A stretch of DNA of 64,000 nt, taken from contig OZ220743.1 of assembly GCA_965116965.1 (NCBI GenBank), positions 111,262-175,261 of the forward strand. The letters run 5' to 3'. Numbering within the stretch: position 1 is the first letter of the stretch; every line of letters starts with the position of its first letter. The translations under genes were made by a program, and so were the position numbers. This document shows positions 1 to 63,458 of this stretch, piece after piece. Below the pieces are notes generated by a model. It saw only the letters and a list, made by a program, of their open reading frames with translations. It did not search any database and had not been told where the DNA came from. This stretch comes from Acidimicrobiales bacterium (GTDB taxonomy: Bacteria > Actinomycetota > Acidimicrobiia > Acidimicrobiales > Aldehydirespiratoraceae).

Positions 1-62
1 GCACTACTAAGGGGATTCAACAGGAACTCGGCAAATCACTAACCGGTCATCAGCTAACCCTA

Positions 63-1226
63 ATGATTGATGAGACTTCGGGTAGCAGGGCGCACTTAGT
101 AAGAGACCCCCGCAATGCTATCGCCTGGGTTGATCTGAGCCGCGTCCAGATGAGTCGTGGCCATGTATTAGCGGCCCGCAAGAGTATAGATGTTGCACTC
201 AGCTTAGCGCCACAGAACCGATTTATCCTTCGCGCTGCCGCTGCGTTCTATGCGGGCATTGATGACCCGGATAGAGCGGCGCATATTCTCGCGCCGGCTG
301 CCTCTGCCAGCAGTGATCCATGGATTATGTCGGCTGAAATCGCGGTATCCTCACTCTCAGGAGGAAAGTCTAGGTCGATCATGAAGGGGCGCTCTCAGTT
401 GCGTTCTGGTGTGTGGGACCAACGTTCCTTGTCAGAGTTGGCTTCTGAGATAGCAACGTTGGAAGCCAAGTCTGGCAAGGATAAGAGCGCCAAGAAGCTC
501 TTTGGTATGTCGCTGGTTGAGCCGACTGAGAATGCCGTAGCACAAGCTGCTTATGTATCTATGGATGAACCTACGCTCGTGCCCGATCATCTCTTGATTG
601 AAGGCACACAACATGCTTGGGGTGCTCATGAAGCGCAGGCGATACAGTCAGAGATGGGATCAGACTTTGCTGGTGCAAGCAGGCACTCGGTGGCTTGGTT
701 TGATGATCAACCCTTCTCGTTACGAGCAGCAACATACGCGTCCTACATTGCTGCATCTGGCACGGAAGACTGGCCGCGTGCTATTCACTTAGCGCACAGG
801 GGCCTGATGATACATAGAGAGAACTCACTACTCCTAAACAATCTTGCCTATGCCATGATCGAATCGGGTGGAGATTTGTCTATAGCACGCCGATTGATTG
901 ATCGATCAGAGAAGGGCAAAGATGCGATCACTTTCGCTGCTACTATCGCTGCAACCAAGGGTCTTCTGGAGTATCGCGTCGGCAATACCGCCGTAGGCCG
1001 TCGCTTGTATGATCTTGCGGCTGCCACCGCAAGGAAGGCGAAGGAACGCGACGTTGAGGCTAGAGCATTGGTGATGCACGCACGCGAAGTAGATAATCGT
1101 CGTGACGCCCTCAGGATGCTTGGGCGGGCCGAACGTATCAGCAGTGACAAGGATACAGTTCTGAAGCTCCTACTGGAGCGCGCAGAGAAGTCGATTCGCG
1201 CAGAGAAGTCGGATCGACAGAGTTGA
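63..1226 (+). CDS. TPR-like helical-repeat hypothetical protein (possibly 5'-partial)
   Basis: 387-aa ORF in a visibly less GC-rich patch. It contains repeated Ala/Leu-rich helix-hairpin stretches (AWVDLSRVQMSRGHVLAARKSIDVALSLAPQN; NNLAYAMIESGGDLSIARRLIDRS). The frame has no stop between nt 3 and the ATG at 63, so the true start may lie upstream of the window. Confidence 0.5.
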   Translation: MIDETSGSRAHLVRDPRNAIAWVDLSRVQMSRGHVLAARKSIDVALSLAPQNRFILRAAAAFYAGIDDPDRAAHILAPAASASSDPWIMSAEIAVSSLSGGKSRSIMKGRSQLRSGVWDQRSLSELASEIATLEAKSGKDKSAKKLFGMSLVEPTENAVAQAAYVSMDEPTLVPDHLLIEGTQHAWGAHEAQAIQSEMGSDFAGASRHSVAWFDDQPFSLRAATYASYIAASGTEDWPRAIHLAHRGLMIHRENSLLLNNLAYAMIESGGDLSIARRLIDRSEKGKDAITFAATIAATKGLLEYRVGNTAVGRRLYDLAAATARKAKERDVEARALVMHAREVDNRRDALRMLGRAERISSDKDTVLKLLLERAEKSIRAEKSDRQS

Positions 1227-1241
1227 CTTCTCTTGGCGTAC

Positions 1242-2393
1242 TCACGTCACCCTGCACGACTCCCGGTAGGAGTCCCGGTACGCAAGTTGGGCTTCGTCAT
1301 TTGCCAAGAACTCGGAGCCGACTGTTGCCCGGTTCGCTTCGAGTCGGGAGTTGGCGGTCTCATCGAATCTGAGCTTGTTTGCGGGTCTGGCGGCTTCGAG
1401 GCCGCTGTCGGCGTAGCGGCGATGCCTGTTCCAGTAGGCAGCGAGTACAACCTCTGCGACACCATCAGACTCGAAATTCTTGAAGGCTGCGAGGTCGCCA
1501 AAATGTGCATCGAAGGTGTCCCACGCACGGGAAGCTGCCACCAACTCGGATTCCTCCATCCGTTCATGCCAGGCCGTGTAGGTGATGCGATCCATCCCCT
1601 GAGCTAGCCGATCCATTCTCTCTGCTACTTCCTCTTCTATGCGGTCGCCTGTGTTGTGCAGGCTGATATCGGCATCGAACTGCTCGTCTTCCCTGATGAT
1701 CTGCTCGATCCAATCGACCACACCAGGAGCTAGCTCGGGAAACGCCACTGCGAGCCGTGTCTCCAACGTGTAGTTGAGGAGGTTCTTGCGCCGTTCGTCG
1801 TGCTCCTTCTCTGCGTCCCGGTGGACTTGCTGCGCTACTTCTACGGCTTCCTTCGCTTCCGCAATGTCCAGTTCGTCGGTGGCAGCAGCGAGCACGTCCT
1901 CGGCTGTTTGGAGTTCTGCTGCGGCTACATCAAGCGTCTCTGACGCGAAGTCGAAGCGATCCCAACGAATCTGCACCCTCCCGCACCACTCGAACCGGTC
2001 ACCCAACCGCTCCGGCTCGGGCACCGTCGTGGTCGTGGTCGTGGTTGTGGTGGCGACCGTCGTTGTGGTGGTGCTCTCCGGCTGGTCGGCTTGCTCCTGG
2101 CTTAGATTGGTCGTGGGGTCTTCCTGCCCCGCCTCAGGCTCCGAGACGGGATCAGGTTGCTCTTGCTGCTCTGCTTCCGGGATGGGGTCAGGCTCATCAG
2201 GAGGCTGCTGCTCAACCTCCGGGATGGGGTCAGGGGCGGCGGTGGTCTCCTGATCGGCTTCGGATGCGATGGTAGTCGTGGGGCTTGTGTCGGCTGTCTG
2301 TTCGGGCTGGGGGCTGTCATCACCCCCACAAGCTGTGGAAGCCAGAGAGACGACTAGGGCAGCTACTACGGGGCGGGCACGGAACGCTGGCAT
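1242..2393 (-). CDS. putative secreted lipoprotein with Thr/Pro/Glu-rich linker
   Basis: The N-terminus MPAFRARPVVAALVVSLASTACGG looks like a signal peptide with a lipobox-like Cys. It is followed by a low-complexity PEQ/poly-Thr linker and a roughly 250-aa acidic helical domain of unknown family. Confidence 0.6.
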   Translation of the reverse strand: MPAFRARPVVAALVVSLASTACGGDDSPQPEQTADTSPTTTIASEADQETTAAPDPIPEVEQQPPDEPDPIPEAEQQEQPDPVSEPEAGQEDPTTNLSQEQADQPESTTTTTVATTTTTTTTTVPEPERLGDRFEWCGRVQIRWDRFDFASETLDVAAAELQTAEDVLAAATDELDIAEAKEAVEVAQQVHRDAEKEHDERRKNLLNYTLETRLAVAFPELAPGVVDWIEQIIREDEQFDADISLHNTGDRIEEEVAERMDRLAQGMDRITYTAWHERMEESELVAASRAWDTFDAHFGDLAAFKNFESDGVAEVVLAAYWNRHRRYADSGLEAARPANKLRFDETANSRLEANRATVGSEFLANDEAQLAYRDSYRESCRVT

Positions 2394-2880
2394 GGTGGTT
2401 CCCTCCGGTGCGGGTTTGGGCGTTCGTGCCAGCGAATGCCTGTGACCGAGCCGAAGGGAACCATGGCGAGGCCCACCCGCGGTAGTCCCCGGTCACTGAT
2501 CAGGGGTTGGCATAACCCCCTGCATTCGCTGGCGAGCGGCACCGTAGCTGTACCTGCGGAAGGGGCGCAAGCTGCTTGGGGTGGACCGTTCGCCATGAAC
2601 GTGGTGGATGGGGCCGAGCATCACCTACATGTCGGCGGGGAGGGGTTCCTTTCCGGCGTGGTGTGGGGAGAGCATCAGGGCCTCCACAAGGGAGTCTCCG
2701 TTGCGCCACTAGGCACACAATTCAGACGCTCGCCAGCTCGGGCAGATTCGCTTTCGCGCCGCTCTGACCTCGGAAGACGTGCTCGGGAGATCATGCTGAA
2801 GTTGCAGTGCTGATCCTGGCAGGGCCAAAATCCGTTTCGCTATAGAGAAAATCCGTTGCAGGCCCTCATCGGTGACCCTT

Positions 2881-2908
2881 CAAGATCGTTGAAATCCCAA
2901 CGATCTTG
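2881..2908. repeat. perfect 10-bp inverted repeat (hairpin) in non-coding DNA
   Basis: caagatcgtt-gaaatccc-aacgatcttg. About 40 nt upstream is a second imperfect palindrome (agggcc...ggccct) containing two direct aaatccgtt copies. Confidence 0.5.
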
Positions 2909-3310
2909 GGACTTACACACCAACCCCACGAGGGCGGAGGGTGCGCGAATCACGGCGCGAAATGCGCTGTGAGGCCGCGATGTTGGGATCTGGAGGTTAG
3001 CGGGGCGCTGTTTGGGGTGTCGCTGGGCCGGTTGGGCGCTGTTGGACGTGTCGGCGCGCGGCGGTGTGGCGCGGGGGCGCGCTGGTTCCGTCTCGGTGTC
3101 GGTTTCGAGCCGGTTAGGCCGCTTGTTGGAGGGGTATGTCCCCCGCGGCGATGCGGTGCTTGCCGAACCAGCGGGTCATGTCCGCGCCGGTGTGTTCGTG
3201 GTGCGCCGCCAACGCAGTGACCAGAACATGGATTTGGTACGCGATCTTGGTGAAGTCGACTCTGTTGTGCCCCAGGGCGCGGCAGCGGCGGTTCCACAGC
3301 CTGGATTTGT

Positions 3311-4720
3311 GGCGCTTCGCGTTTGAGGTCGGAGTGGGGGCGGTAGGGGTCCCCGGCTGAACGCGAGGGATCCCCCAGAATCGGCGCTTCGCGACAGCCG
3401 AGATCTGGAGGATCCCTGTGGAGTGCGACCCTACGCGTGTGTGCGAGCTGATGTTGGGACTGGGCGACGTGGAGGTGCTCGGCGTCGAGGGCGAGGCCGG
3501 TGCGCCGCTGCGGGTGCGTGTGCGGCTGCGGGTGCCGAGGCCGGGCTGTGTGGGCTGCGGCGGGCGGCCGTGGTCAAACGGCGACAGCCGGGTGGAGTTG
3601 GTGGACCTGCCGGCGTTCGGGCGGTCTGTGCGGCTGGTGCAGCAGGCGGCGGTGGCGTTGCGGTGACTGCGACTGCGAGGCGGGCACCGTCACCGAGCAG
3701 GACCCGCGGATCGCGCCCGAGCATGGGAGGCTGACGACGCGGGCGGGACGTTGGGCGACGCGCCAGGCCAAGCTGGGCCGCACCGTGGCGGAGGTCGCCG
3801 ACGAGCTCGGGTGCAGCCGGCACCCGGTGAACGCCTCGGTGCGGCGCTGGGGCGAGGCGCTGCTCGAGGCCGACACTGAGCGCATCTCAGCCGTCGTCGC
3901 GCTGGGGCTCGACGAGCACCTGATGTGGCGGCGGGGACGGTCCCGGACCAAGGCCTGGGCCACCGGCATCGTCGACGCGGGCGGGCCAGCTGTTGGACAT
4001 AGTCCCAGGCCGCACCGCCAAAGCACCCGCAGCGTGGCTGCTTGAGCGGCCCCGCAGCTGGTTGGCCGGCATCCGCTGGGCTGTTCTGGACCTCTCAGGC
4101 CCCTACCGCACGGCCTTCGACACCGCGGTGCCCGACGCGGCCCAGGTCGCGGACCCGTTCCACGTCGTGCGGTTGGGCAACACCGCCCTCGACGAGGTCC
4201 GCCGTCGTGTCCAGAACCAGACCCTCGGGCACCGCGGCCACAAACACGACCCGCTGTATCGGGCCCGCAAACTGCTGGTGTCCGCGTCCGAGAAGACCAC
4301 CGACTCCGGACGCGTCCGGCTGCGGGGCCTGCTCGACGCCGACGACCCCTACGGCGAAGTCAAAGACGCCCGGCACCGCTGAAGAAACCCTGCGCAGCAT
4401 CTATGACATCAACGACGCCGAAGTGGGCGCCGCGACCGTGAACCAGCTCGCCAAGGACCTCCAGGACCCCGGCCTGCCGCCCGAGGTCAACCGGCTCGGC
4501 CGCACCCTGTGGACCTGGAAACACCAGATCGCCAACCGGCACACCGCCAAAGTCACCAACGCCGCTGCCGAAGCCGCCAACAACCTCGTCAAACGCGTCA
4601 AACGCGCCGCCTTCGGGTCCACTGACTTCGCCAACTACCGAATCCGAGCCCTCCTCTACGCCGGCAGACCCAACTGGACACTGCTCGACACCCTCACCCC
4701 GACCTGAAACGCGGAGAGCC
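3311..4720 (+). mobile_element. degenerate ISL3-family insertion sequence
   Basis: Imperfect terminal inverted repeats: ggcgcttcgcgtttgaggtcgg (3311-3332) against the reverse complement of 4699-4720, ggctctccgcgtttcaggtcgg (19/22). They enclose the ISL3-type transposase reading frames. No matching 8-bp target duplication is seen. Confidence 0.75.
3418..4707 (+). pseudogene. ISL3-family transposase, broken by at least three frameshifts
   Basis: Transposase-like segments are spread over several frames. Examples: the N-terminal Zn-finger region CVGCGGRPWSNGDSRVELVDLPAFGR; LGLDEHLMWRRG; AVLDLSGPYRTAFDTAVPDAAQVADPFHVVRLGNTALDEVRRRVQ; and the C-terminal NRHTAKVTNAAAEAANNLVKRVKRAAFGSTDFANYRIRALLYAGRPNW. 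Confidence 0.85.
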
Positions 4721-5165
4721 CGATATCTTGCATGTGATTGCGCACGCAGATCACAAGGAACTCGATGTCGGTATCGCGAAGAAGCGCGTCAAGCATCTGA
4801 ACTCGAACGACAAGCAAAGTCGGGCAAGAGAGTAGCTCCGATTGTCATCTCTACCGCGTGTAGCTTCCAGAGCAGCGCGTGGCAGTCTGCATTTCGCACT
4901 GCGGGAGCTCGGCTGCTGATTGGTGCCAGAGGCAAGGTGTCGCTAACGAATGTTACAGCTTTTGACATGTCATTTTATGGCACCTTGCTGTCGTGTGTGT
5001 ACAAGGGTCATTCGACCGAGTACCGTGTCCGCGAGTCCTTCAAGCTAGCCAGGAACCACTACAACGCCATTCATGCTCACGGGGGACGGCCCCCGGCATT
5101 CACTATGGTTCAGCTGTAGTCATTGGATTCCGGCCAACACAAGCGGGCTCCTCCAACGATGGGAG

Positions 5166-15310: not shown

Positions 15311-15515
15311 CGCTCGCAGACGCATCAAGCACAGCCTCGGCGTCAGCATCGAGCGGGACACTGGCAAGCTGAGCCCCCATGATGCGACGACGTTCCCGTC
15401 GGACCAGCTTCTCGATCTGCGCGTCGAAGGTCAGCCCCTCACGATCGGCGAGCTCACGAAGAGCGTCCCGTGTCTGGACGGAGACCTTAATGGTAGTCGT
15501 ATCAGGCATACCCAA
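15288..15515 (-). CDS. type II antitoxin (RHH/MazE-like) paired with the MazF-like toxin
   Basis: 75 aa. TTIKVSVQTRDALRELADREGLTFDAQIEKLV looks like a ribbon-helix-helix N-terminus, and the tail is acidic. It lies immediately upstream of and overlapping the toxin gene. Confidence 0.7.
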   Translation of the reverse strand: MGMPDTTTIKVSVQTRDALRELADREGLTFDAQIEKLVRRERRRIMGAQLASVPLDADAEAVLDASASDVADASR

Positions 15516-32481: not shown

Positions 32482-32576
32482 AGGTCTGGCCGATCCCGGT
32501 GCCGCGCATCGTACCCCGGTCGAGAGTCGCAGACAGGACCGGCGAGCCCCCCAACCCGGAGGCCGAGCGGGCAGGC

Positions 32577-32815
32577 GCGCGAGTCGGGGCCCAAGCGGGC
32601 GAGGCCGTGGCCCGAGCAGCCCTCAGGTCGCGGGACGCGCGAGTCGGGGCCCAAGCGGGCGAGGCCGTACGGGCGAGCGGCCCTCAGGTCGCGGGACGCG
32701 CGAGTCGGGGCCCAAGCGGGCGAGGCCGTGGCCCGAGCAGCCCTCAGGTCGCGGGACGCGCGAGTCGGGGCCCAAGCGGGCGAGGCCGTACGGGCGAGCG
32801 GCCCTCAGGTCGCAG
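32577..32815 (+). repeat. tandem array, 4 units of 60/61 bp (two alternating variants), related to the dispersed intergenic element
   Basis: gcgcgagtcggggcccaagcgggcgaggccgtggcccgagcagccctcaggtcgcgggac alternates with a ...gtacgggcgagcggcc... variant. Unit starts are at 32577, 32637, 32698 and 32758. The last unit ends ...cgcagcgaacgagatcgggag, as in the single-copy elements. Confidence 0.9.
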
Positions 32816-36165: not shown

Positions 36166-37389
36166 CTAGCGGGCGGAGGCTGACAGCAATTCGTAGGCGT
36201 TGTCCCGCATCACCTTGCGGACCTCGTCGTCGCTGAAGCCGGCGATGTCGTCCAGGTAGGAGGCCGGCTCGGCCAGACCCTCGGCGTGGGGGTAGTCCGA
36301 GCCGAACAGCATCCGGTCGGCCCCGATGCAGTCCTTGATGAGGGCCATGTCGTCCTCGAAGTAGGGCGACACCCACACGTTCTCGATGAAGACCTCCACC
36401 GGGTGGCGCTTGAACTCCCACGGCATCTTGCCGTGGCAGATCTTGAGGTTGCGCAACAGGTCGGGGACCCACATGGCCCCGTTCTCGATGGTGGCCAGGC
36501 GCAGATCGGGGAAGCGGTCGAGCACGCCGTGGCAGATCAGGGCCGCGAACGTGTCGGAGATCGAGCGGTCCGAGAAGGCCACCAGCGGGAAGGCCATGTG
36601 CTTGAACGCCTCGAACTGGCCCCGGGACGGCTCCCACACCTTGCCGTACTGGACGGTGCCGTTGAGGCCGGCGTGCATGGCCAGCGGCACCCCGGCCTCC
36701 TCCAGCCGGGCCCAGATCGGGTCGTAGTCGGCCATGCCCGGCGACTGGTAGCCGCTTCCGGTGGGCACCGGGCCGGGAACGGTGCACACGATGCGGGCGC
36801 CCATCCCCAGCAGCCGCTCCAGCTCGACCACCGCCAGCTCCGGGTCGGCGAAGGTGAGCATGGGCACAGCGAAGATGCGGCCGTCGCGGTCGAAGCCCCA
36901 GTCCTCGTCGAGCCAGTTGTTGAACGCGCTGAAGGCGGCGTGCAGGGCTGCAATGTCACGCTTGAGGGCCTCCTGCATGCCCACGCCCTGGGTGGGGAAC
37001 AGCAGCACCGACTCCAAACCCTGGCTGTCCATCAGCTCGACGCGGGCGTCGCGGTCGCGGAAGCCGGGGTGGTCCTCTAGGGGATCGAGGTCGCCGAACA
37101 TGGCCGCGATGTCGCGCCCCTCCAGGTTGCGGCCCCGGAAGTAATCCTCGAGGCTGCCCGGCTTGGCGATCGGGTCGAAGGTCGGGTTGGGGATGAACTT
37201 GTTGACCTTGCCGGCCACCATGAAGCGCTTTCGACCGTCGATCTCCGCCCACTGCATGCAGCGCTTCTTCATGGACGGGTCGATGTGGCGAATGAAGGCG
37301 TCGGGCGCCTCGTAGTAGTGCTCGTCCACATCGAACGCCCGGAATCCCAGTGCGGCTTGGGTCGTCATTGCTTCGAGGCTACCGGCCAC
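36166..37389 (-). CDS. amidohydrolase-2 family protein
   Basis: FDVDEHYYEAPDAF..., LLFPTQG..., FGSDYPHAEG. It is a paralog of 61628..62806. The start may be ATG 37368. Confidence 0.8.
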   Translation of the reverse strand: MAGSLEAMTTQAALGFRAFDVDEHYYEAPDAFIRHIDPSMKKRCMQWAEIDGRKRFMVAGKVNKFIPNPTFDPIAKPGSLEDYFRGRNLEGRDIAAMFGDLDPLEDHPGFRDRDARVELMDSQGLESVLLFPTQGVGMQEALKRDIAALHAAFSAFNNWLDEDWGFDRDGRIFAVPMLTFADPELAVVELERLLGMGARIVCTVPGPVPTGSGYQSPGMADYDPIWARLEEAGVPLAMHAGLNGTVQYGKVWEPSRGQFEAFKHMAFPLVAFSDRSISDTFAALICHGVLDRFPDLRLATIENGAMWVPDLLRNLKICHGKMPWEFKRHPVEVFIENVWVSPYFEDDMALIKDCIGADRMLFGSDYPHAEGLAEPASYLDDIAGFSDDEVRKVMRDNAYELLSASAR

Positions 37390-37481
37390 CCTGCCCAGCG
37401 AATCCCAGCATAACCAGCATTATCAGTTTTTTTTTGTGATTATTGTTATATTTCAATATGCACTCTGCTAACTTGCCTGTC

Positions 37482-37841
37482 ATGGACCCGGCGATAACCG
37501 CCACCGTCATCGGCGTGCTGCTAACCGTCGCCTTCGGCGCCTTCGCTACCGCGTTCGCCTGGTTCAGGTCCGACGTGATCGCTCGCTTGGACAAGATGGA
37601 TGAGAAGTCAGACAGCCGGTTCGAGAAGATCGACGGCAGGTTCGAGAAGATCGACGGCAGGTTCGAAGAGATCGACGGCAGGTTCGAAGAGATCGACGGC
37701 AGGTTCGAGAAGATCGACGCCCGGTTCGAGAAGATCGACGCCCGGTTCGACCGGCTGGAGACGACCGTTCAGACCCTGATTGTGACGCTCGCCCAGAGAG
37801 GGCATTTGACGGACCCAGACGACTCGGGGCCCGAAGACTGA
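37482..37841 (+). CDS. small membrane-anchored coiled-coil protein with six and a half 21-bp (heptad) repeats
   Basis: MDPAITATVIGVLLTVAFGAFATAFAWFRSDV (one TM helix), then RFEKIDG x2, RFEEIDG x2, RFEKIDA x2, RFDRLET, and a C-terminal LAQRGHLTDP. It lies behind a roughly 90-bp AT-rich tract. TAACTT sits 7 nt upstream of the ATG, and I saw no Shine-Dalgarno. Confidence 0.65.
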   Translation: MDPAITATVIGVLLTVAFGAFATAFAWFRSDVIARLDKMDEKSDSRFEKIDGRFEKIDGRFEEIDGRFEEIDGRFEKIDARFEKIDARFDRLETTVQTLIVTLAQRGHLTDPDDSGPED

Positions 37842-37848
37842 AGTAGAT

Positions 37849-38025
37849 GTGATCCTTGCCGCCATCGTCATCGGCGGGCTGTACCCGGCCTCACTCGCTG
37901 CCTTCATCATTCAGTTCGTCCGGCTGCGGTCTGACATGCACGCGGGTTTCGACAGGCTCGAGACCCGCTTCGACGAACTGTTCGACCGGCTGGAGAGTCA
38001 GGTGCCGATGACTGACTCTCCGTAA
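37849..38025 (+). CDS. small membrane-anchored coiled-coil protein (58 aa, GTG start; below the ORF-track cutoff)
   Basis: My own translation: VILAAIVIGGLYPASLAAFIIQFVRLRSDMHAGFDRLETRFDELFDRLESQVPMTDSP. It has the same TM, LRSD and RLE layout as the neighbouring paralog. The 3' end overlaps the convergent LLM gene. Confidence 0.4.
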   Translation: MILAAIVIGGLYPASLAAFIIQFVRLRSDMHAGFDRLETRFDELFDRLESQVPMTDSP

Positions 38026-38909
38026 TGCTGGAGGGCCTCTAGGGAGCGGTTCAGGGAGTCGGCGGGGATGGGGGCCGCGCACCAGGTGACGCCTAGCTCG
38101 GCCAACTCCTGCAGGGCCTCCGAGTGGGCGTCGGGATTGAAGTCGTCGGCGACGGGGCTACCGCCGGCCAAGGTCATGAACGAGACGTCGATCTCTGCGG
38201 GGTCGCGACCGGCTGACTCGGCTTGACGCCATAGGTCGTCCAGCATCGCTCTCAAGTCGTCGAGTGTCTCCAGCGGGACCGTTCGGGCGGTGGTGGCCAG
38301 CCGTCGGGGGGCGGGGAACGGGACCCAACCGTCGGCGACGGTCGCGACACGCCGGCGGCTGAGGCGGCTGTTGCCTCCGATCCAGATCGGGATCGGCCGC
38401 TCCGGCTTGGGGTTGGCGGTCTGGCCCCGGGCCGTGAAGTTGCGGCCCTCGTAACTGAAGTCGTCGGTGGTCCACACGCCCCGCACGACCTCGATGGCCT
38501 CGTCGAACAGGTCGTTGCGCTCTTCGAAGTCCACTCCGAGGGCCCGGTACTCGCCCTTGAGGTAGCCGGTGCCCACGGCCAGCACGAACCGGCCGTCGGA
38601 CATAGCGTCGATGGTGGCCGCCGACTTAGCCACCAGGAACGGGTTGCGGTAGGGCAGCACCACCACGTTGGGGATCAACTGCACGCGCTCCGTGACCGCG
38701 GCCGTGAAGGCCAGCGCCGCGAAGGGATCGAGCGCGTCGTGGCCGCCGGCCGCCATCCAGCGGTGAGTCGGGGCGGGATGATCGGTGAAGCCAATCCCGT
38801 CGAAGCCGGCCTCCTCGGCCGCCCGGGCGAACTCCACGAGCCCTTGGCGCGTCGCGAACTCGGGGCTGCAGCGGCCCGCGGCCAGCGGGTACGTCACCGA
38901 GAACTTCAC
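37998..38909 (-). CDS. LLM-class F420-dependent oxidoreductase
   Basis: MKFSVTYPL..., FDGIGFTDHP, VVLPYRNPFLVAKSAATIDAMSDGRFVLAVGTGY and PIWIGGNS are luciferase-like monooxygenase family blocks. It uses a GTG start. Confidence 0.85.
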   Translation of the reverse strand: MKFSVTYPLAAGRCSPEFATRQGLVEFARAAEEAGFDGIGFTDHPAPTHRWMAAGGHDALDPFAALAFTAAVTERVQLIPNVVVLPYRNPFLVAKSAATIDAMSDGRFVLAVGTGYLKGEYRALGVDFEERNDLFDEAIEVVRGVWTTDDFSYEGRNFTARGQTANPKPERPIPIWIGGNSRLSRRRVATVADGWVPFPAPRRLATTARTVPLETLDDLRAMLDDLWRQAESAGRDPAEIDVSFMTLAGGSPVADDFNPDAHSEALQELAELGVTWCAAPIPADSLNRSLEALQHYGESVIGT

Positions 38910-39234
38910 GAACGAACCCTCCCGGCTGCCAACGCGAACCCGGCGATAGGCAAGAGCGCCACCGAGAACTTCACGAACGAACCCTCCCAGCTGCCAACGC
39001 GAACCCGGCGATAGGCAAGAGCGCCACCGAGAACTTCACGAACGAACCCTCCCAGCTGCCAACGCGAACCCGGCGATAGGCAAGAGCGCCACCGAGAACT
39101 TCACGAACGAACCCTCCCAGCTGCCAACGCGAACCCGGCGATAGGCAAGAGCGCCACCGAGAACGTCACGAACGAACTCTCCCAGCTCCCAGCTCGAACG
39201 CAACGGCAGGCACGAGCATCACCGAGAACTTCAC
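38906..39234 (-). repeat. tandem array of five 65-bp units, each a 22-codon mini-cistron (relay between the FGGY kinase stop and the LLM start)
   Basis: Unit starts (GTG) are at 39234, 39169, 39104, 39039 and 38974. Each reads GTG AAG/ACG TTC TCG GTG ... GGG AGG GTT CGT TCG TGA (MKFSVALLPIAGFALAAGRVRS). Each TGA overlaps the next GTG, and the final TGA overlaps the LLM GTG at 38909. Confidence 0.9.
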
Positions 39235-48797: not shown

Positions 48798-49231
48798 CGG
48801 GCGTCACCGCCCAACCGCTCGGCCTCTGCAGGACGGAACAGCGGAACGTGCCACTCGCCGCTCTCCTCGAACAGCACCTCGACCCGCATCCCGATCTCGA
48901 CCTCGTCGATGTCGCAGTCCACGATGTTGGTGCCGATCCGCACCGTCGGATCCTCGTCGAGTTCGACGAGCGCGAAGACATAGGGCGGCGTGAACCCCGG
49001 GATCCACTCCTTGCGATTGATCGTGTACGTGGCCACGGTGCCGGTTCCGGCCACCGGCTCGGGGCCGACCCGGCGCGAGTGGCAGAAGGGGCAGGCCGGG
49101 CCGGGCGGGTGGACCCAGCGGGAGCATTCGCCGCAACGCTGGATCCTGAGCCGGCCGTCGGCCCCGGAACGCCAGTAGAACTCGCTCTCGGGCGAGGCCA
49201 GCACGAACCGGGGCGGGTTGTCCGCGCTCAT
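48794..49231 (-). CDS. Zn-ribbon/OB-fold protein (DUF35), thiolase partner
   Basis: Rubredoxin-like CGECSRWVHPPGPACPFC followed by an OB-fold region. It lies immediately downstream of an SCP-x-type thiolase. Confidence 0.85.
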   Translation of the reverse strand: MSADNPPRFVLASPESEFYWRSGADGRLRIQRCGECSRWVHPPGPACPFCHSRRVGPEPVAGTGTVATYTINRKEWIPGFTPPYVFALVELDEDPTVRIGTNIVDCDIDEVEIGMRVEVLFEESGEWHVPLFRPAEAERLGGDAR

Positions 49232-49511
49232 GACGGTCCCCTGGTCAGCCGGTTGTCCGCGCTCACGACAGGCACCGAGTCAGCCGGTTGTCCGCGCTCA
49301 TGACGGTCCCCTGGTCAGCCGGTTGTCGGCGCTCACGACAGGCACCGAGTCAGCCGGTTGTCCGCGCTCATGACGGTCCCCTGGTCAGCCGGTTGTCGGC
49401 GCTCACGACAGGCACCGAGTCAGCCGGTTGTCCGCGCTCATGACGGTCCCCTGGTCAGCCGGTTGTCGGCGCTCACGACAGGCACCGAGTCAGCCGGTTG
49501 TCGGCGCTCAT
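49228..49511 (-). repeat. tandem array of eight 35-bp units (four 70-bp double units), each a 12-codon mini-cistron (relay between the thiolase stop and the DUF35 start)
   Basis: Starts at 49511, 49476, 49441, 49406, 49371, 49336, 49301 and 49266 alternate ATG and GTG. ATG AGC GCS GAC AAC CGG CTG ACT CGG TGC CTG TCG TGA encodes MSADNRLTRCLS, and GTG AGC GCC GAC AAC CGG CTG ACC AGG GGA CCG TCA TGA encodes SADNRLTRGPS. Every stop overlaps the next start, and the last overlaps the DUF35 ATG at 49231. Confidence 0.9.
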
Positions 49512-50686
49512 GACGGTCCCCTGGTCAGCAGCAGGCATCCGGTCTCGGGGCCGCCGCCGGCTCCGACCGCGACCACCTCGCAGCCGGGGACCTGGACGTT
49601 GGCTGTGCCCCGCAACTGCATCACTGCCTCGTGAAGGTGGCCGAAGCCGTGCAGCCGGCCCGCGGAGAGCTGGCCGCCGGACGTGTTGAGCGGCGCCGGG
49701 CCGTCGGGGCCGATGTTGGCGCCGCCCTCCACGAAGGCCCCGCTCTCCCCCTTGCCGCAGAAGCCCATGGCCTCGATCCAGGCCAGGGTCAACCAGCTGA
49801 AGCCGTCGTACAGCTGAGCGGTGTCCACGTCGTCGACCGTCAGCTCGGTGCGCTCCCACATCGAGGCGGCGGTGTGGCGCATCATCATCGACGTCAGGTC
49901 GTCGAACTGGTCCCAGGAGGGCCGGCCCCGGATGGCGGTCCCCATGGCGTTGACGCCGACCGCGCCCGCCGGGGCGTCGGGTGAGTGGTCGCGGTGCGAG
50001 ACCACCACCGCGGTGGACCCGTCGCAGGGAACATCACAGTCGTAGAGGCACAGCGGGTCGCTGATCATCCGCACGGCCAGGTAGTCGTCGATGGTCATGG
50101 GATCGGTGTAGACGGCCTGGGGGTTGGCCGCCGCGTTGGCCCGCCCGTTGATCGCAATGGCGCCGAGCTGCGTGCGGGTGGTGCCGTAGTCGTGCATGTG
50201 GCGGCGGGCGTAGCAGGCGACCCAGCAGGCGGCCGACGCCGCTCCGTAGGGGATCATGAACTGGAACGGACCGGCCGAGCCGGCCATCGGGCCGCCCCCA
50301 CCGCCGCCGCCGGGGCGCAACGGCCCTCCGCTGCCCTCCACCACGGTGCGGAACACCAGCACGTGGCGAGCCAGGCCGGTCGCCACCGCCAGGATGGCGT
50401 TGTGGACCGCGCCCAGCGGGCCGGCAGTCTCCACGCCCGAGCTGCGCCAGTTGAGCGCCAACCGCAGCGCCTCGTGCAGTTCAGCCCCCATGGCCCCTCC
50501 GAAGGAGCCGCCGAAGCCCGGATAGGTGGACACCCCGTCGATGTCGGCCGTCGTCAGCCCGGCGTCGGCGACCGCCCGGAGTGCGGCCTCGACGGTGAGG
50601 TCGATGCCGGTGCGGTACAGCCGGCGGCCGATCTCAGACTGGGCCGCGCCGCTGATAACGGCCCGCCGCTCCCGAGGCTCACCCAT
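49508..50686 (-). CDS. thiolase-like lipid-transfer (SCP-x-type) protein
   Basis: 392 aa with a thiolase-superfamily fold pattern (VISGAAQSEIGR..., GVSTYPG..., CDVPCDGSTAVVV, GGQLSAGRLHGFGHLHEAVMQLRG). It is paired with a DUF35 gene. Confidence 0.8.
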   Translation of the reverse strand: MGEPRERRAVISGAAQSEIGRRLYRTGIDLTVEAALRAVADAGLTTADIDGVSTYPGFGGSFGGAMGAELHEALRLALNWRSSGVETAGPLGAVHNAILAVATGLARHVLVFRTVVEGSGGPLRPGGGGGGGPMAGSAGPFQFMIPYGAASAACWVACYARRHMHDYGTTRTQLGAIAINGRANAAANPQAVYTDPMTIDDYLAVRMISDPLCLYDCDVPCDGSTAVVVSHRDHSPDAPAGAVGVNAMGTAIRGRPSWDQFDDLTSMMMRHTAASMWERTELTVDDVDTAQLYDGFSWLTLAWIEAMGFCGKGESGAFVEGGANIGPDGPAPLNTSGGQLSAGRLHGFGHLHEAVMQLRGTANVQVPGCEVVAVGAGGGPETGCLLLTRGPS

Positions 50687-57495: not shown

Positions 57496-58617
57496 ATGGA
57501 GTTCGAGTTCACCGACGACCAGTTGGAGCTCCAACGAGCGGTGCGCGACGTACTAGACGCCGAGGCGCCGCCCGAGCTGGCCCGGGCGGTGGCCGACGGC
57601 CAGTCCGACGCCGCCGACCTCTGGCAGACGCTGGCGAGCCTGGAATGGCCCGCCATGGCGCTGCCGACCGATGCCGGCGGCCTCGGCTACGGCTGGGTGG
57701 AGCTGGCCATCGTGCTGGAGGAGCTGGGCCGCCACGCCGCGCCGGGTCCGTTCGTGGCCACCGTCACCCAGTTCGCCTCGCTGGTGGCCGAAGCCGCCGC
57801 GCCCTCCCAGGCCACTGAGCTGCTGGCGCCGGTGGCCGCGGGCCGAACCACCGGCACCATCGCGGTCGACGAGGGCGCCGGAACCTGGGATCCGGCAGAG
57901 GTGAGCGCCACCGCTCGCCGCGACGGCGACGATCTGGTGCTGTCAGGCACGAAGCAATATGTGCTCGACGGAGCCACCGCCGATGAGATCGCGGTCGCGG
58001 TCCGGATCGACGGCGAGTTGCGGGTGGTCACCGTGCCGGGCTCGTCGGTCCAAGCCACCGGCGGCATCCCCGTGGATCCCGGCGTCCGCCACGCCACCGT
58101 CACCCTCGACGGGGTGCGCGTGCCCGCCGAGAGACTGCTCGGCGACGGCGACGCCGCCGATGCGGTCCGCCGGGCGCTGGAGGAGTCGGTGACCGCGGTC
58201 GCCGCGGTCACGCTGGGCGCCTGCCAGCGGATCTTCGACATCATCAACGGCTACGCCAAGGAGCGCATCCAGTTCGGCGTGCCCATCGGCTCGTTCCAGG
58301 CCGTGAAGCACAAGCTGGCCGACATGTACCGCGACATCGAACGGGCCCGGGTGCTCGTCTACTACGCGGCCCTGACCCTGGCCGAGGACCACCCGGACCG
58401 GACGCTGGCCGCCTCGATGGCCAAGGCGGCTACGGGCGAGGCCCAACGCCGTTGCGTGCAGGACGGACTCCAGCTCGCGGGCGGGATCGGCTACACCTGG
58501 GAGCACGACCTGCACCTGTTCCTGCGCCGGGCCAAGGTGGGCGAGCTCCACTTCGGCTCGGCCTCCCACCACCGCCGGAGAGTCGCCCGCCTAGCCCTCC
58601 AATCCCAGCCCGCCTAG
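57496..58617 (+). CDS. acyl-CoA dehydrogenase family protein
   Basis: MEFEFTDDQLELQRAVRDVL..., ERIQFGVPIGSFQAVKHKLADM and GGIGYTWEHDLHLFLRRAK. Confidence 0.85.
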   Translation: MEFEFTDDQLELQRAVRDVLDAEAPPELARAVADGQSDAADLWQTLASLEWPAMALPTDAGGLGYGWVELAIVLEELGRHAAPGPFVATVTQFASLVAEAAAPSQATELLAPVAAGRTTGTIAVDEGAGTWDPAEVSATARRDGDDLVLSGTKQYVLDGATADEIAVAVRIDGELRVVTVPGSSVQATGGIPVDPGVRHATVTLDGVRVPAERLLGDGDAADAVRRALEESVTAVAAVTLGACQRIFDIINGYAKERIQFGVPIGSFQAVKHKLADMYRDIERARVLVYYAALTLAEDHPDRTLAASMAKAATGEAQRRCVQDGLQLAGGIGYTWEHDLHLFLRRAKVGELHFGSASHHRRRVARLALQSQPA

Positions 58618-58817
58618 GCCGGCGCCGAGTCCGCCGGCGGCTCCGGCATCTGAGGGTCGGTCAGATAGCCAGACCCGGCCAACGCCAGAACCAGATTGTC
58701 CAGCTTGCCTTCCACTCGACGGATGTCGGAGCGAAGCAGATGGAACGCCCCCGTCAGCACGCCAACGAGTGCGCTCCCCAGCACGCCGATGAGAGTCGCG
58801 GCGATCGCTGGATCCAC
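58614..58817 (-). CDS. small membrane-anchored coiled-coil protein (67 aa)
   Basis: VDPAIAATLIGVLGSALVGVLTGAFHLLRSDIRRVEGKLDNLVLALAGSGYLTDP. GTG start with AGGAA upstream. Paralog of 58827..59081 and 37482..37841. Confidence 0.6.
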   Translation of the reverse strand: MDPAIAATLIGVLGSALVGVLTGAFHLLRSDIRRVEGKLDNLVLALAGSGYLTDPQMPEPPADSAPA

Positions 58818-58826
58818 GACGCGTTC

Positions 58827-59081
58827 CTAACCCTGCGGCTCGGCAGGCGGCTGCGGCGGCTGGGGTTGGGCAGGGAATCCGGCTTGTGCCATCGCCCAGA
58901 TCAGCCCGTCCAGCTTCCCCTCGAGCCGGTCGATCCTCCGGTTGGTTTCGCGATGGTCGGCGCGGTTCTCGGCGCGCAACTCCTTGAGATCGGAGCGAAG
59001 TAGATGAAACGCGCCAGTTAGCACGCCGATGAGCCCAGTGCCCAAGACGCCGATGAGCGTTGCTGCGATGGCGGGGTCCAT
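58827..59081 (-). CDS. small membrane-anchored coiled-coil protein (84 aa)
   Basis: MDPAIAATLIGVLGTGLIGVLTGAFHLLRSDLKELRAENRADHRETNRRIDRLEGKLDGLIWAMAQAGF with a Pro/Gln-rich tail. It appears to be leaderless. Confidence 0.65.
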   Translation of the reverse strand: MDPAIAATLIGVLGTGLIGVLTGAFHLLRSDLKELRAENRADHRETNRRIDRLEGKLDGLIWAMAQAGFPAQPQPPQPPAEPQG

Positions 59082-59087
59082 GCAGTC

Positions 59088-59116
59088 ACATTACTGGCAG
59101 ACGCTCACTGGTGCAA
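59088..59116 (-). promoter_or_regulatory. sigma-70-like promoter positioned for a leaderless transcript of the small-protein gene
   Basis: On the minus strand: TTGCAC, 17 nt, TAATGT, 6 nt (gactgc), then ATG. A perfect palindrome CATGAT-n5-ATCATG (59120-59136) and a TTGACA lie just upstream in an AT-rich tract. Confidence 0.5.
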
Positions 59117-59163
59117 CTACATGATATGAAATCATGTCAAAAAGACTTTAAGACTGGGCAGAT

Positions 59164-60375
59164 TCACGGCGGGTCGAAGAGGACCGGGAGGCTCAGGGGG
59201 CCGCGGAAGGCGTAGCCGCTGATGGTCGGGGCCTCGGCGTGGGGGTCGAGGCGCAGATTGGGCAGGCGGTCGAGCACTGCGTTGATCCCCACCTCGAGTT
59301 CCATGCGGGCCAGGTGCATGCCCAGGCACTGGTGCGGCCCGGTGCCGAAGGCCATGTGCCGCTGCGGCTCCCGGTCGAGGTCCCACTCCCCGGGATCGTC
59401 CCAGCGGGCCTCGTCGTGTGATGCCGAGCCGTTCATCACCGAGACCGATGATCCCGCCGGCACCGGGCAGCCGCCGATCTCCGTGCCAGCTGCCGCCACC
59501 CGGGCCACCATCGTCACCGACGTCTCCCAGCGCAATGTCTCCTCAACCGCGGCGGGCACCAGCGACCGGTCGGCCCGCACCCGGGCCATCGCCTCGGCAC
59601 GCTCCAGCAGGGCCAGCAGGCAGGATCCGAAGGCCCGGTAGGTGGTCTCGGCCCCCGCCGGCAGCAGCAGCCGCAGGAACCCGTAGATCTTCTCGTCGGT
59701 GAGGCGGGCACCGTCGATCTCGGCGTGCACCAGCTCCGAGAGCAGGTCGCCGGTGGGCTCCGTCCGTCTGGCTTCCACCAGCGGCTCCAGGTAGTCGCGC
59801 ATGGCCTGGGACGCGGCCCGTCCCTCCTCGGGGTACAGCGGCCCGTAGTTGATTCGCATGGCCCAGTCGTTGAACTTCTCGTGGTCGGTGGTGGGCACGC
59901 CCACGATCCCGCAGATCACCTGCACCGGGAACTTGCTGGTGACCTGGTCGACCAGGTCGGCCCGCCCGGCCGGGGCTATGGAGTCCAGCAGCGTCTGGAT
60001 CACGGGCTCCACCAGCTCGCCCCGCCACCGTTCCAGGGTCGAGCGGCGGAAGGCGTAGGCCACCAGGTTGCGGTAGCGGCGGTGCTCGTCGCCGTCGAGG
60101 CCGAGCATCAGCTCCCCCATGTAGGGACCCATGACCTCGCCGTTGATCGACGCCGAGAACGAGCGCCAGTCCCGCAGCACCTGGTCGGCGTCGTCGAAAG
60201 TCGTGACCGTGAACCTCGGCAGCGCCGGATCCTCGGTGAGACTGAACCCCTCCTCCCGGATGACGGGGCAGTGCCGGCGGGCATGGTCCCACTGGCCGTA
60301 GGGCTGGGCCGAATCCCACTGGTCGTAAGGAGGCGCCGAGTAGTCCATCGCGTCCTCCACGTCGGCGCTCTCCAT
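59164..60375 (-). CDS. cytochrome P450
   Basis: Heme loop FGTGPHQCLGMHLA, E-x-x-R motif AVEETLRWET and I-helix LLLPAGAETT. Confidence 0.9.
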   Translation of the reverse strand: MESADVEDAMDYSAPPYDQWDSAQPYGQWDHARRHCPVIREEGFSLTEDPALPRFTVTTFDDADQVLRDWRSFSASINGEVMGPYMGELMLGLDGDEHRRYRNLVAYAFRRSTLERWRGELVEPVIQTLLDSIAPAGRADLVDQVTSKFPVQVICGIVGVPTTDHEKFNDWAMRINYGPLYPEEGRAASQAMRDYLEPLVEARRTEPTGDLLSELVHAEIDGARLTDEKIYGFLRLLLPAGAETTYRAFGSCLLALLERAEAMARVRADRSLVPAAVEETLRWETSVTMVARVAAAGTEIGGCPVPAGSSVSVMNGSASHDEARWDDPGEWDLDREPQRHMAFGTGPHQCLGMHLARMELEVGINAVLDRLPNLRLDPHAEAPTISGYAFRGPLSLPVLFDPP

Positions 60376-62806: not shown

Positions 62807-62924
62807 GACGGTCCCTCCTTCACGGACGCCGATAGATCTCCAACCATATCCGTGCTCGGTCCTGGTCGGCATGAGCGTGCGCTGGATCTGCTGGCCATAT
62901 CAGGTTATTTGATGCTTTTTAGTG

Positions 62925-62954
62925 TTGCATCATTGCGCTGCGGCCTTCTATAGT
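62925..62954 (+). promoter_or_regulatory. sigma-70-like promoter positioned for a leaderless transcript of the small-protein gene
   Basis: TTGCAT (62925), 18 nt, TATAGT (62949), 6 nt (gacgct), then GTG 62961. A T-rich tract lies upstream. The layout and part of the sequence are shared with the promoter at 59088-59116. Confidence 0.5.
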
Positions 62955-62960
62955 GACGCT

Positions 62961-63458
62961 GTGGACGCGATCACGCTCACGGACCTCTTGGCAGTCGTAG
63001 CCGCTGTCCTCGGCCCGACGCTGGCCGCCGTCTTGGCTTTGGCCCGTTACCAGCACAAGGACAGCATCGAGACCCACCGATTGATCGCAGAGGCCAGAGA
63101 CGAGTTCCGCACCGGGATCGCAGAGGCCAGAGACGAGTTCCGCACCGGGATCGCAGAGGCCAGAGACGAGTTCCGCACCGGGATCGCAGAGGCCAGAGAC
63201 GAGTTCCGCACCGGGATCGCAGAGGCCAGAGACGAAACCCGCCAACTGTTCGACAAGGCCGTCGACGAAACCCGCAACCTGTTCGGAGAGGCCAGGGACG
63301 AGAACCGCGAGCACCGCCGCGAGAACGGTGAGATCCTCAAGGAAGTGATCCGGAGCCTCGCCGACGCCCGCGAGAGGCTGGCGCGCATCGAGGGACACTT
63401 CGGCATCGGGGGGAGTCCGAGAGACGAGGATGGTCGAGGCACGGCTGACGCCGCCTGA
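62961..63458 (+). CDS. membrane-anchored coiled-coil protein with four and a half 33-bp (11-residue) repeats
   Basis: The GTG start gives VDAITLTDLLAVVAAVLGPTLAAVLALA (TM), then IAEARDEFRTG x4, IAEARDETRQLF..., and RERLARIEGHFGIGG. The start was chosen by analogy with the MDPAI... N-termini of the paralogs and by the promoter spacing. Confidence 0.55.
   Translation: MDAITLTDLLAVVAAVLGPTLAAVLALARYQHKDSIETHRLIAEARDEFRTGIAEARDEFRTGIAEARDEFRTGIAEARDEFRTGIAEARDETRQLFDKAVDETRNLFGEARDENREHRRENGEILKEVIRSLADARERLARIEGHFGIGGSPRDEDGRGTADAA

Follow-up and report, generated by a model that had tools for sequence, protein, structure and literature searches.

A conserved, most likely leaderless promoter ahead of tandem genes for small membrane-anchored coiled-coil proteins in an Acidimicrobiales genome

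We analyzed a 64,000-nucleotide (nt) stretch of an Acidimicrobiales genome (the window; overall guanine-plus-cytosine content, GC, 0.68) that carries three loci for small proteins, and we concentrate here on the second of these, locus 2. Here two short paralogous genes, which we call gene 1 and gene 2, lie in tandem on the minus strand, with an 82-bp spacer between gene 1 and a cytochrome P450 gene (59164-60375, minus strand); the other neighbors encode two acyl-CoA dehydrogenases (ACAD), one of them convergent with gene 2, and a family III CoA-transferase. The features of the locus, read on the minus strand, are these:

59140-59135, minus strand: TTGACA hexamer, read directly, with tgatttcatatcatgtag between it and TTGCAC
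59137-59131 and 59125-59119, minus strand: perfect 7+7 palindrome, ACATGAT and ATCATGT around the loop ttcat
59126 to 59131, minus strand: upstream element TTTCAT, centered near -50 in a T-rich stretch
59116-59111, minus strand: -35 hexamer TTGCAC (family consensus GTTGC(A/T)T)
59093-59088, minus strand: -10 hexamer TAATGT (TANNNT), exactly 17 nt from the -35, its first T 12 nt before the start codon
59079 to 59081, minus strand: ATG start codon of gene 1, its A at 59081 being the predicted transcription start
58827-59081, minus strand: gene 1, an open reading frame (ORF) of 84 amino acids (aa), from the ORF list
58828-58824, minus strand: AGGAA Shine-Dalgarno of gene 2, overlapping the TAG stop of gene 1 (58827-58829)
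58614-58817, minus strand: gene 2, an ORF of 67 aa with a GTG start, from the ORF list
58614-58617, both strands: CTAG, common to the stop of gene 2 and that of the convergent ACAD gene (4-nt overlap)

The hexamers, the ORFs, the 9-nt gap between genes 1 and 2, the AGGAA and the 4-nt ACAD overlap all lie where a preliminary description of this DNA had placed them. The 6 nt that separate TAATGT from the ATG (gactgc) contain no Shine-Dalgarno sequence, and an in-frame TAA three codons 5' of the ATG makes a longer gene 1 ORF impossible.

The ratio of nonsynonymous to synonymous substitution (dN/dS) was 0.18-0.25 against same-length orthologues, indicating purifying selection, and GC is 0.77-0.88 at third codon positions vs 0.39-0.49 at second positions. 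The gene 1 product consists of an N-terminal transmembrane helix, one hendecad-type unit, RIDRLE, LIWAMAQAGF and a tail rich in proline and glutamine, which across the family mostly ends in DPQG. The helix starts at residue 3, after an acidic MDP, and carries a GxxxG motif; in alignments G19xxxG23 and the AFHLLRSD that belongs to the same N-terminal region are invariant. Further along, a block reading R-I-D-R-L-E-G-K-(L/V)-D-x-L-I-L-A-L-A-R-A-G-F-L-x-D-P is conserved, and the variable part is the stalk, built of 11-residue (LQEFRTENRAD) or 7-residue units (RIDRLEG; RFEKIDG at locus 1). The gene 2 product lacks an 18-residue (7+11) stalk segment, and orthologues differ in length by +7, +11, +22, +33, +44 or -18 (7+11) residues; since these steps come in 7- and 11-residue units, the register of the coiled coil is preserved. 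AlphaFold2, run on the monomer with an alignment, gave a single helix over residues 3-66 followed by a disordered tail. Lysine and arginine average 0.19 in the flank N-terminal to the transmembrane helix and 3.9 in the C-terminal flank, the latter being the higher in 163 of 168 sequences, so that by the positive-inside rule both small proteins are predicted to have the N-terminus outside and the C-terminus inside (N-out/C-in), with the stalk in the cytoplasm. Judged by eye, the transmembrane segment of the tandem paralogues is a candidate for concerted evolution.

The family to which these proteins belong is uncharacterised, restricted to marine and sponge-associated Acidimicrobiia, and structurally simple. 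All 231 homologues of the 84-aa protein are unnamed or labeled "hypothetical," and among 1.84 billion representatives, searched by HMMER without a preceding word filter, only 46 clusters reached E <=1e-3. When all five small proteins of the window and 24 relatives were compared with Pfam, NCBIfam, PHROGs and PADLOC, none reached a curated cut-off, the matches being generic coiled-coil noise. A search of positions 58300-59500 against Rfam at E up to 1 gave no match, viral contigs held no relative of the small-protein family, and public assemblies, checked for an identical copy of the 84-aa protein, have none on record.

The evidence for the promoter is comparative. We assembled 20 promoter blocks, three from the loci of the window and 17 from a scan of reference genomes with the family alignment (individual loci from the scan carry L numbers below); all 17 came from metagenome-assembled genomes of Acidimicrobiales or "Candidatus Aldehydirespirator," and the Aldehydirespirator family includes both sponge-symbiotic and free-living lineages (PMC11706023). 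Aligned from the start codon, the upstream 100 nt are nearly gap-free across the related loci. The alignment of promoter blocks that had been proposed earlier as a check brings the three window loci and the 17 orthologues together, with TANNNT at shared positions in all blocks and TTGNNN in all but one. TANNNT is present in 20/20 blocks (first T at -12 in 17 of them, at -13 in 3), TTGNNN (consensus GTTGC(A/T)T) stands at -35/-36 in 19/20, with the TTG invariant in the orthologue alignment, and TT(T/C)CAT lies within a T-rich stretch at -50 to -52 in 15/20, one further block having TTTGAT and one TTTCGT. This last element may be a UP-like element or an activator site. Synonymous divergence among the same genomes is 0.7-1.0, near saturation, and the retention of the hexamers and of the -10-to-start distance despite this argues that these positions are under selection. 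The block also accompanies the small gene when the upstream gene has changed: at L006 it follows a CoA-transferase with no P450 gene, and at L001 and L015 it likewise stands in other contexts from which P450 is absent.

The signal described for leaderless genes in actinobacteria is a TANNNT placed some 12 nt 5' of the start codon (PMC3160421), and in mycobacteria a 5' ATG or GTG is both necessary and sufficient for leaderless translation (PMC4633059). Locus 2 has both sequence hallmarks of such a unit, TANNNT at -12 and an ATG/GTG without a Shine-Dalgarno. Over the 20 first genes, the start codon is ATG in 17 and GTG in 3, with no TTG or CTG, and the stretch of 6-7 nt from the -10 box to the start shows no purine enrichment in the 20 blocks (gccggc in orthologues). 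The predicted mRNA has a weakly structured 5' end: folding leaves its first 8 nt unpaired, and its first 60 nt are less stable than shuffled sequences (z +1.6). A leaderless promoter at locus 2, as the preliminary description had it, and of sigma-A type, is therefore well supported as far as sequence comparison goes, with both hexamers and the -10-to-start distance held over 20 blocks; that transcription most likely starts leaderless at the predicted site, 59081, is a strong inference.

The complete pattern is rare in the window. TTGNNN-N16-19-TANNNT-N6-7-ATG/GTG was found at 2 of 3,801 ATG/GTG triplets on both strands, at 59081 and 62961, and both are small-protein loci. TANNNT alone, 6-7 nt before ATG/GTG, was found at 16 window sites, 12 of which head ORFs of at least 57 aa and 7 of these ORFs of at least 283 aa. 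Leaderless genes thus appear to be common in this genome and not special to locus 2, which supports the leaderless reading and at the same time lowers its novelty: the arrangement is a new instance of a well-known, ordinary actinobacterial pattern. The 7 sites before long ORFs (283-524 aa) are 11640(+), 28370(+), 40786(+), 42248(+), 44820(+), 61592(-) and 37368(-), and several annotated starts at such ORFs may need adjustment. Roughly half of the promoters (L001, L002, L003, L007, L009, L011, L013, L014 and L016) repeat this motif, with another T(T/C)CAT at -30/-31, about 20 nt after the conserved TT(T/C)CAT; this direct repeat, which could be the site of a tandem-binding regulator, is missing from the locus 2 promoter of the window.

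The order of genes is kept too. Syntenic loci read P450, promoter, between one and three tandem paralogues (one genome may have four) and convergent ACAD; what precedes the small gene is, in at least 11 of 17 loci, the C-terminus of the same P450, and the array ends at the same convergent ACAD in at least 7, and these shared flanks indicate that the locus is syntenic and not mobile. The preliminary description had a second cistron with a Shine-Dalgarno after a short gap, and this stands: the AGGAA is present and the gap is conserved, the intergenic gaps of orthologous arrays measuring 7-12 nt and beginning TAGG(A/G), so that the stop codon of one gene is part of a Shine-Dalgarno-like AGGA/AGGGG for the following one. 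This layout suggests coupled translation of the tandem genes. The 67-aa form is a distinct orthologue group: nine other genomes have it, at exactly 67 aa and always closing the array. The long paralogues vary in length. The 4-nt stop overlap with a confirmed ACAD frame occurs at L004, L006, L007, L008, L010 and L012 as well as in the window, and both convergent stops are contained in one shared tetranucleotide, the palindromic CTAG, which in some orthologues is TTAG. A functional link of the small proteins to P450 or ACAD was considered and rejected, since the other loci lie beside unrelated enzymes and the L006 cassette follows a CoA-transferase.

As to how the products assemble, R-hxxhE is a trimerisation motif that also occurs in some dimers (PMC3653964). 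R49-I-D-R-L-E54 of the 84-aa protein fits it, at positions at least 90% conserved in the alignment; the strict motif occurs in 125 of 168 sequences and is absent from the 67-aa paralogue. The family profile gives weak matches in the PDB to the trimers of Lpp, YadA, HA2 and coronin, and it matches five stretches of a YadA-type trimeric autotransporter stalk. These likenesses suggest that the stalk is probably a parallel trimeric coiled coil.

The other two loci of the window have the following layout:

37446 to 38025, plus strand: locus 1, with TTATAT (37446-51), 17 nt, TAACTT (37469-74), 7 nt and ATG at 37482
37482-37841, plus strand: first gene of locus 1, 119 aa, with about seven 7-aa RFEKIDG repeats
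37849-38025, plus strand: second gene of locus 1, 58 aa, GTG start
62908 to 63458, plus strand: locus 3, with TTTGAT (62908-13), TTGCAT (62925-30), 18 nt, TATAGT (62949-54), 6 nt and GTG at 62961
62961-63458, plus strand: gene of locus 3, 165 codons, carrying a 33-bp repeat

An AT-rich block at each locus had been claimed earlier and is present at all three (37385-37500, 59080-59183 and 62892-62958), with minimum GC 0.27-0.40 vs 0.68 for the window. The claim that the loci form a single family fared less evenly. Locus 1 is homologous to locus 2 (tblastn E = 6e-7) and also matches the family profile, and its orthologues L018-L020 share its synteny and a GTTGTAT-N16/17-TAGNNT-N6/7-ATG promoter. 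The locus 3 family (58 hits, with an invariant LADARERLARIEG motif) gave no hidden Markov model hit with the locus 2 profile and an hhalign probability of 2.8%, so direct profile homology of the two families was rejected; they are linked only through P0151, a mosaic metagenomic relative that matches both profiles, at 98% and 92%. Residues 3-96 of P0151 match the locus-1/2 family and residues 92-119 match ERLARIEG, the motif that is invariant at the C-terminal end of the locus-3 family, which suggests a modular superfamily joining the two.

The 33-bp repeat in the locus 3 gene (63083-63235; 11 aa, IAEARDEFRTG) is 100% identical over 4.6 copies, pointing to a very recent expansion, and its length possibly varies within the population. 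For three locus-3 relatives (P0167, P0169 and P0171) the public gene calls start 13-16 residues before the conserved (M/V)DAITL start; the leaderless GTG start is not recognised by gene callers. Because all three loci and their orthologues share one architecture, the economical reading, in keeping with the earlier suggestion, would be that promoter and small gene duplicated together as a unit, the formal alternative being that the three loci converged on one strong promoter type.

Taken together, these results lead us to a joint reading, to which we give a probability of roughly 0.6: a conserved sigma-A-type leaderless promoter drives a coupled bicistronic operon whose products are N-out/C-in, probably trimeric stalks with a likely structural or scaffolding role. 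A sigma-A-like promoter in the 82-bp spacer (T-rich/TTTCAT, TTGCAC, 17 nt, TAATGT) would start transcription at the A of 59081 and yield a leaderless bicistronic mRNA. Gene 1 would be translated from the 5'-terminal AUG and gene 2 via the AGGAA that overlaps the gene 1 stop, so that both products would be made together. Each product would be bitopic, with a 3-residue acidic N-terminus and one GxxxG transmembrane helix in N-out/C-in orientation, continuing as one long helix into a parallel coiled coil, probably a trimer, at the cytoplasmic face of the membrane. The GxxxG motif of the transmembrane helix and the R-hxxhE motif of the coiled coil would mediate assembly, possibly into mixed oligomers of long and short paralogues, and the C-terminal end would consist of a conserved hydrophobic cap (LILALARAGFL-DP) and then the proline-rich tail. 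Over evolution the stalk would gain or lose 7- or 11-residue units with its register kept. The whole would be a stalk tethered to the membrane, structural or scaffolding in role and offering its C-terminal peptide to a partner, and not an enzyme, toxin or RNA element; the scaffold role is our best guess.

Several points weigh against this joint reading. TTGCAC and TAATGT each match the E. coli consensus at 3/6 positions, and a sigma-70 scan of 58300-59500 by the E. coli-type criterion (at least 4/6 matches per hexamer and 9/12 overall) found 0 sites; the term "near-consensus," used in the preliminary description, has to be given up, and what the hexamers do match is the actinobacterial TTGnnn/TAnnnT pattern. 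Neither a promoter/terminator scan of the same region nor RNA folding yielded a terminator, and neither the RNA after gene 2 nor that of the spacer folded into anything unusual (z about 0). The confidence of the AlphaFold2 model is moderate (predicted local distance difference test, pLDDT, 78; predicted template-modeling score, pTM, 0.38), and the trimer call would rest on a motif that is also found in some dimers and on sub-threshold matches. The proline-rich tails also fit wall-spanning extracellular segments. Finally, no conserved partner gene hints at function, the neighbors being different at the three loci.

The small proteins could instead serve a larger membrane protein as accessory subunits or modulators, as characterised small membrane proteins of bacteria do, the coiled coil being secondary. 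The most conserved part of the protein, the transmembrane helix with its invariant GxxxG and the juxtamembrane GVxxGAFHLLRSD, speaks for such a role, but the cytoplasmic RIDRLEGK-LILALARAG block is equally strongly conserved and no membrane-protein partner is conserved beside any of the three loci, and we regard this alternative as unlikely. Also rather improbable is a reversed topology (N-in/C-out), in which stalk and tail would reach into the cell envelope and act there as a spacer in the manner of Lpp or as a surface structure. In relatives the tails, rich in proline, serine, threonine and alanine and up to about 70-80 residues long, resemble wall-spanning linkers, the stalk is variable in length, and the profile matches Lpp and adhesin stalks weakly; against this stand the charge distribution (lysine and arginine mean 0.19 in the acidic N-flank vs 3.9 in the C-flank, higher in 163/168) and the lack, in the sequences, of a lipobox, a signal-peptide n-region, a sortase signal or a C-terminal lysine signal.

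A further alternative concerns the control of the promoter. The preliminary description had seen in the spacer a perfect CATGAT-n5-ATCATG palindrome resembling an operator. The repeat is there, with arms one base longer (7+7), and it stops 2 nt before the -35 with the conserved TTTCAT carried in its loop; the operator role did not hold up. A 7+7 inverted repeat arises in about 4% of shuffles of the 82-nt spacer, which makes it marginally unusual, and an inverted repeat of 7 or more was found in 0 of the 17 orthologous promoters, where the best was 6 or less and mostly 4 or less or none. L001, the closest relative (90% protein identity), has kept the right arm in part and lost the left arm. In the orthologues the arms are not conserved; the loop (TTTCAT) and its T-rich surroundings are, and this resembles a UP-type element or an activator site more than an operator. 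That the palindrome is a site for a dimeric repressor or activator of the locus 2 promoter, lineage-specific at most, is thus doubtful, even though so perfect a repeat, 2 nt from the -35, is reached by only 4% of shuffles and an imperfect TGAr-N4-5-TTCA surrounds TTTCAT in about half of the orthologues (by eye); by this comparison, the palindrome, seen only in the window, lies outside the conserved mechanism of the family. The upstream TTGACA, also listed earlier as part of the promoter spacer, was rejected as a -35 or other promoter element, because no TANNNT lies 16-18 nt downstream of it and it is not conserved in orthologues.

It is very unlikely that the small genes are not leaderless at all and are instead co-transcribed with P450 and translated from an internal start. 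The P450 gene is on the same strand, 82 nt away, with no predicted terminator between, and it adjoins the small gene in 11 or more of the 17 loci from the scan; but no Shine-Dalgarno precedes the ATG (gactgc; gccggc in orthologues), the -35, the -10 and the start distance are fixed in the 20 blocks, and the promoter block is kept where P450 is absent (L001, L006 and L015). Read-through from P450 could still add to expression without replacing the promoter. Least probable of all, small membrane toxins or holin-like lysis proteins (type I toxin-antitoxin or prophage remnant) would account for small single-pass proteins with a charged C-terminal part and for weak PHROG matches (including the label "hol-like chemotaxis"), but not for synteny in 17 species-level genomes under purifying selection, for metabolic neighbors with no Rfam RNA, no viral-contig hit and no PADLOC family above noise, or for a long soluble coiled coil in several constitutive-looking copies.

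The repeat-driven variation of stalk length and the promoter duplicated across loci are the most interesting aspects of this system. A bolder proposal, which we consider a long shot, goes beyond the joint reading: the loci would form a lineage-specific, multi-locus superfamily of membrane-anchored trimeric "molecular ruler" stalks, acting as a membrane-proximal scaffold (or, with reversed topology, as an Lpp-like spacer or a host-facing surface layer), with stalk length tuned in 7/11-residue steps and co-expression from a duplicated strong promoter. On this proposal, the 100% identical 33-bp repeats at locus 3 would mean that stalk expansion is ongoing, and the stalks, if real, would be a structural system new to Actinomycetota.

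Whatever the role of the proteins, the comparison provides a promoter model (T-rich/TTTCAT, GTTGCwT, 17 nt, TAnnnT, 6 nt, ATG/GTG) for an uncultured lineage of marine and sponge-associated actinobacteria, and this model can be used to correct gene starts, where gene callers now over-extend or miss small genes. Several copies of the family, probably highly expressed, lie within one 64-kb window. If a role is found, they would join the few small membrane proteins of bacteria that are understood and would offer a natural series of stalk lengths for studies of coiled-coil register.

Some other features of the window deserve mention. Non-coding tandem arrays occur at 38895-39234 (65 bp x 5.2, filling the intergenic space beside locus 1) at 49216-49529 (70 bp x 4.5) and at 32576-32813 (121 bp x 2). 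The idea that these arrays are related was rejected, because their repeat units have nothing in common. The left end of the window (1-5100) has AT-rich islands at 14-78, 782-934 and 4917-5013 (the last containing TTGACATGTCATTTTATGG), as well as an ORF at 3993-4707 that may be a transposase candidate, and may be a mobile or foreign segment. Divergent small ORFs at 15509(-) and 15533/15559(+) have leaderless-type -10 boxes (TATACT, TACCAT and TAGCCT); the 73-aa product encoded there begins MPDTTTIKVSVQTRDALRELADREG and is antitoxin-like by appearance only.

Among known systems, Lpp and the YadA-type stalks come to mind for their short, parallel, trimeric, membrane-tethered coiled coils and for stalk lengths that vary in register-preserving units. 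In the present family, by contrast, the anchor is a transmembrane helix and not a lipid or beta-barrel, the stalk is predicted to be cytoplasmic and the host is a monoderm actinobacterium, and we treat the resemblance as a likeness; the sequences have no cysteine or lipobox, their C-termini end in G or A, and profile E-values against Lpp chains are 0.15-0.43. The b/b' subunits of F-type ATP synthase offer another likeness, with an N-out N-terminal anchor, a long cytoplasmic helix of 11-residue periodicity and tandem paralogues; they differ in that the small proteins are much shorter, with a proline-rich tail and a trimer-type motif, whereas b/b' is dimeric. Only the locus-3 protein matches the NCBIfam b/b' models, at 10-16 bits vs cut-offs of 65-198, and the genes do not lie in an atp operon.

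The best Pfam matches of the repeat-rich members, CCDC90-like (DUF1640, PF07798) and DUF7310 (PF23991), reflect generic coiled coil only. For PF07798, P0018 scored best at 24.6 bits, below the gathering threshold of 33.5, and the 84-aa and 67-aa proteins had no match; for PF23991, the 119-aa locus-1 protein reached 22.8 bits and P0151 33.7 bits, below the gathering threshold of 40. DUF1640 proteins, moreover, have their transmembrane helix at the C-terminus. Sub-threshold matches to the small-protein family were also seen for LapA_dom, no family threshold being reached. PspB, YhcB/ZapG and LapA are of similar size and likewise combine an N-terminal transmembrane helix with a coiled coil in the cytoplasm, but they are not known to have tandem repeat modules, an R-hxxhE-G block or a proline-rich tail.

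With respect to expression, the closest parallel is with the leaderless genes of actinobacteria, which likewise have TANNNT at -12/-13, no Shine-Dalgarno, ATG or GTG as the 5'-most codon and a small product; the locus 2 promoter differs from these in keeping a -35 (GTTGCwT) and an AT-rich TTTCAT element in a genome of 68% GC.

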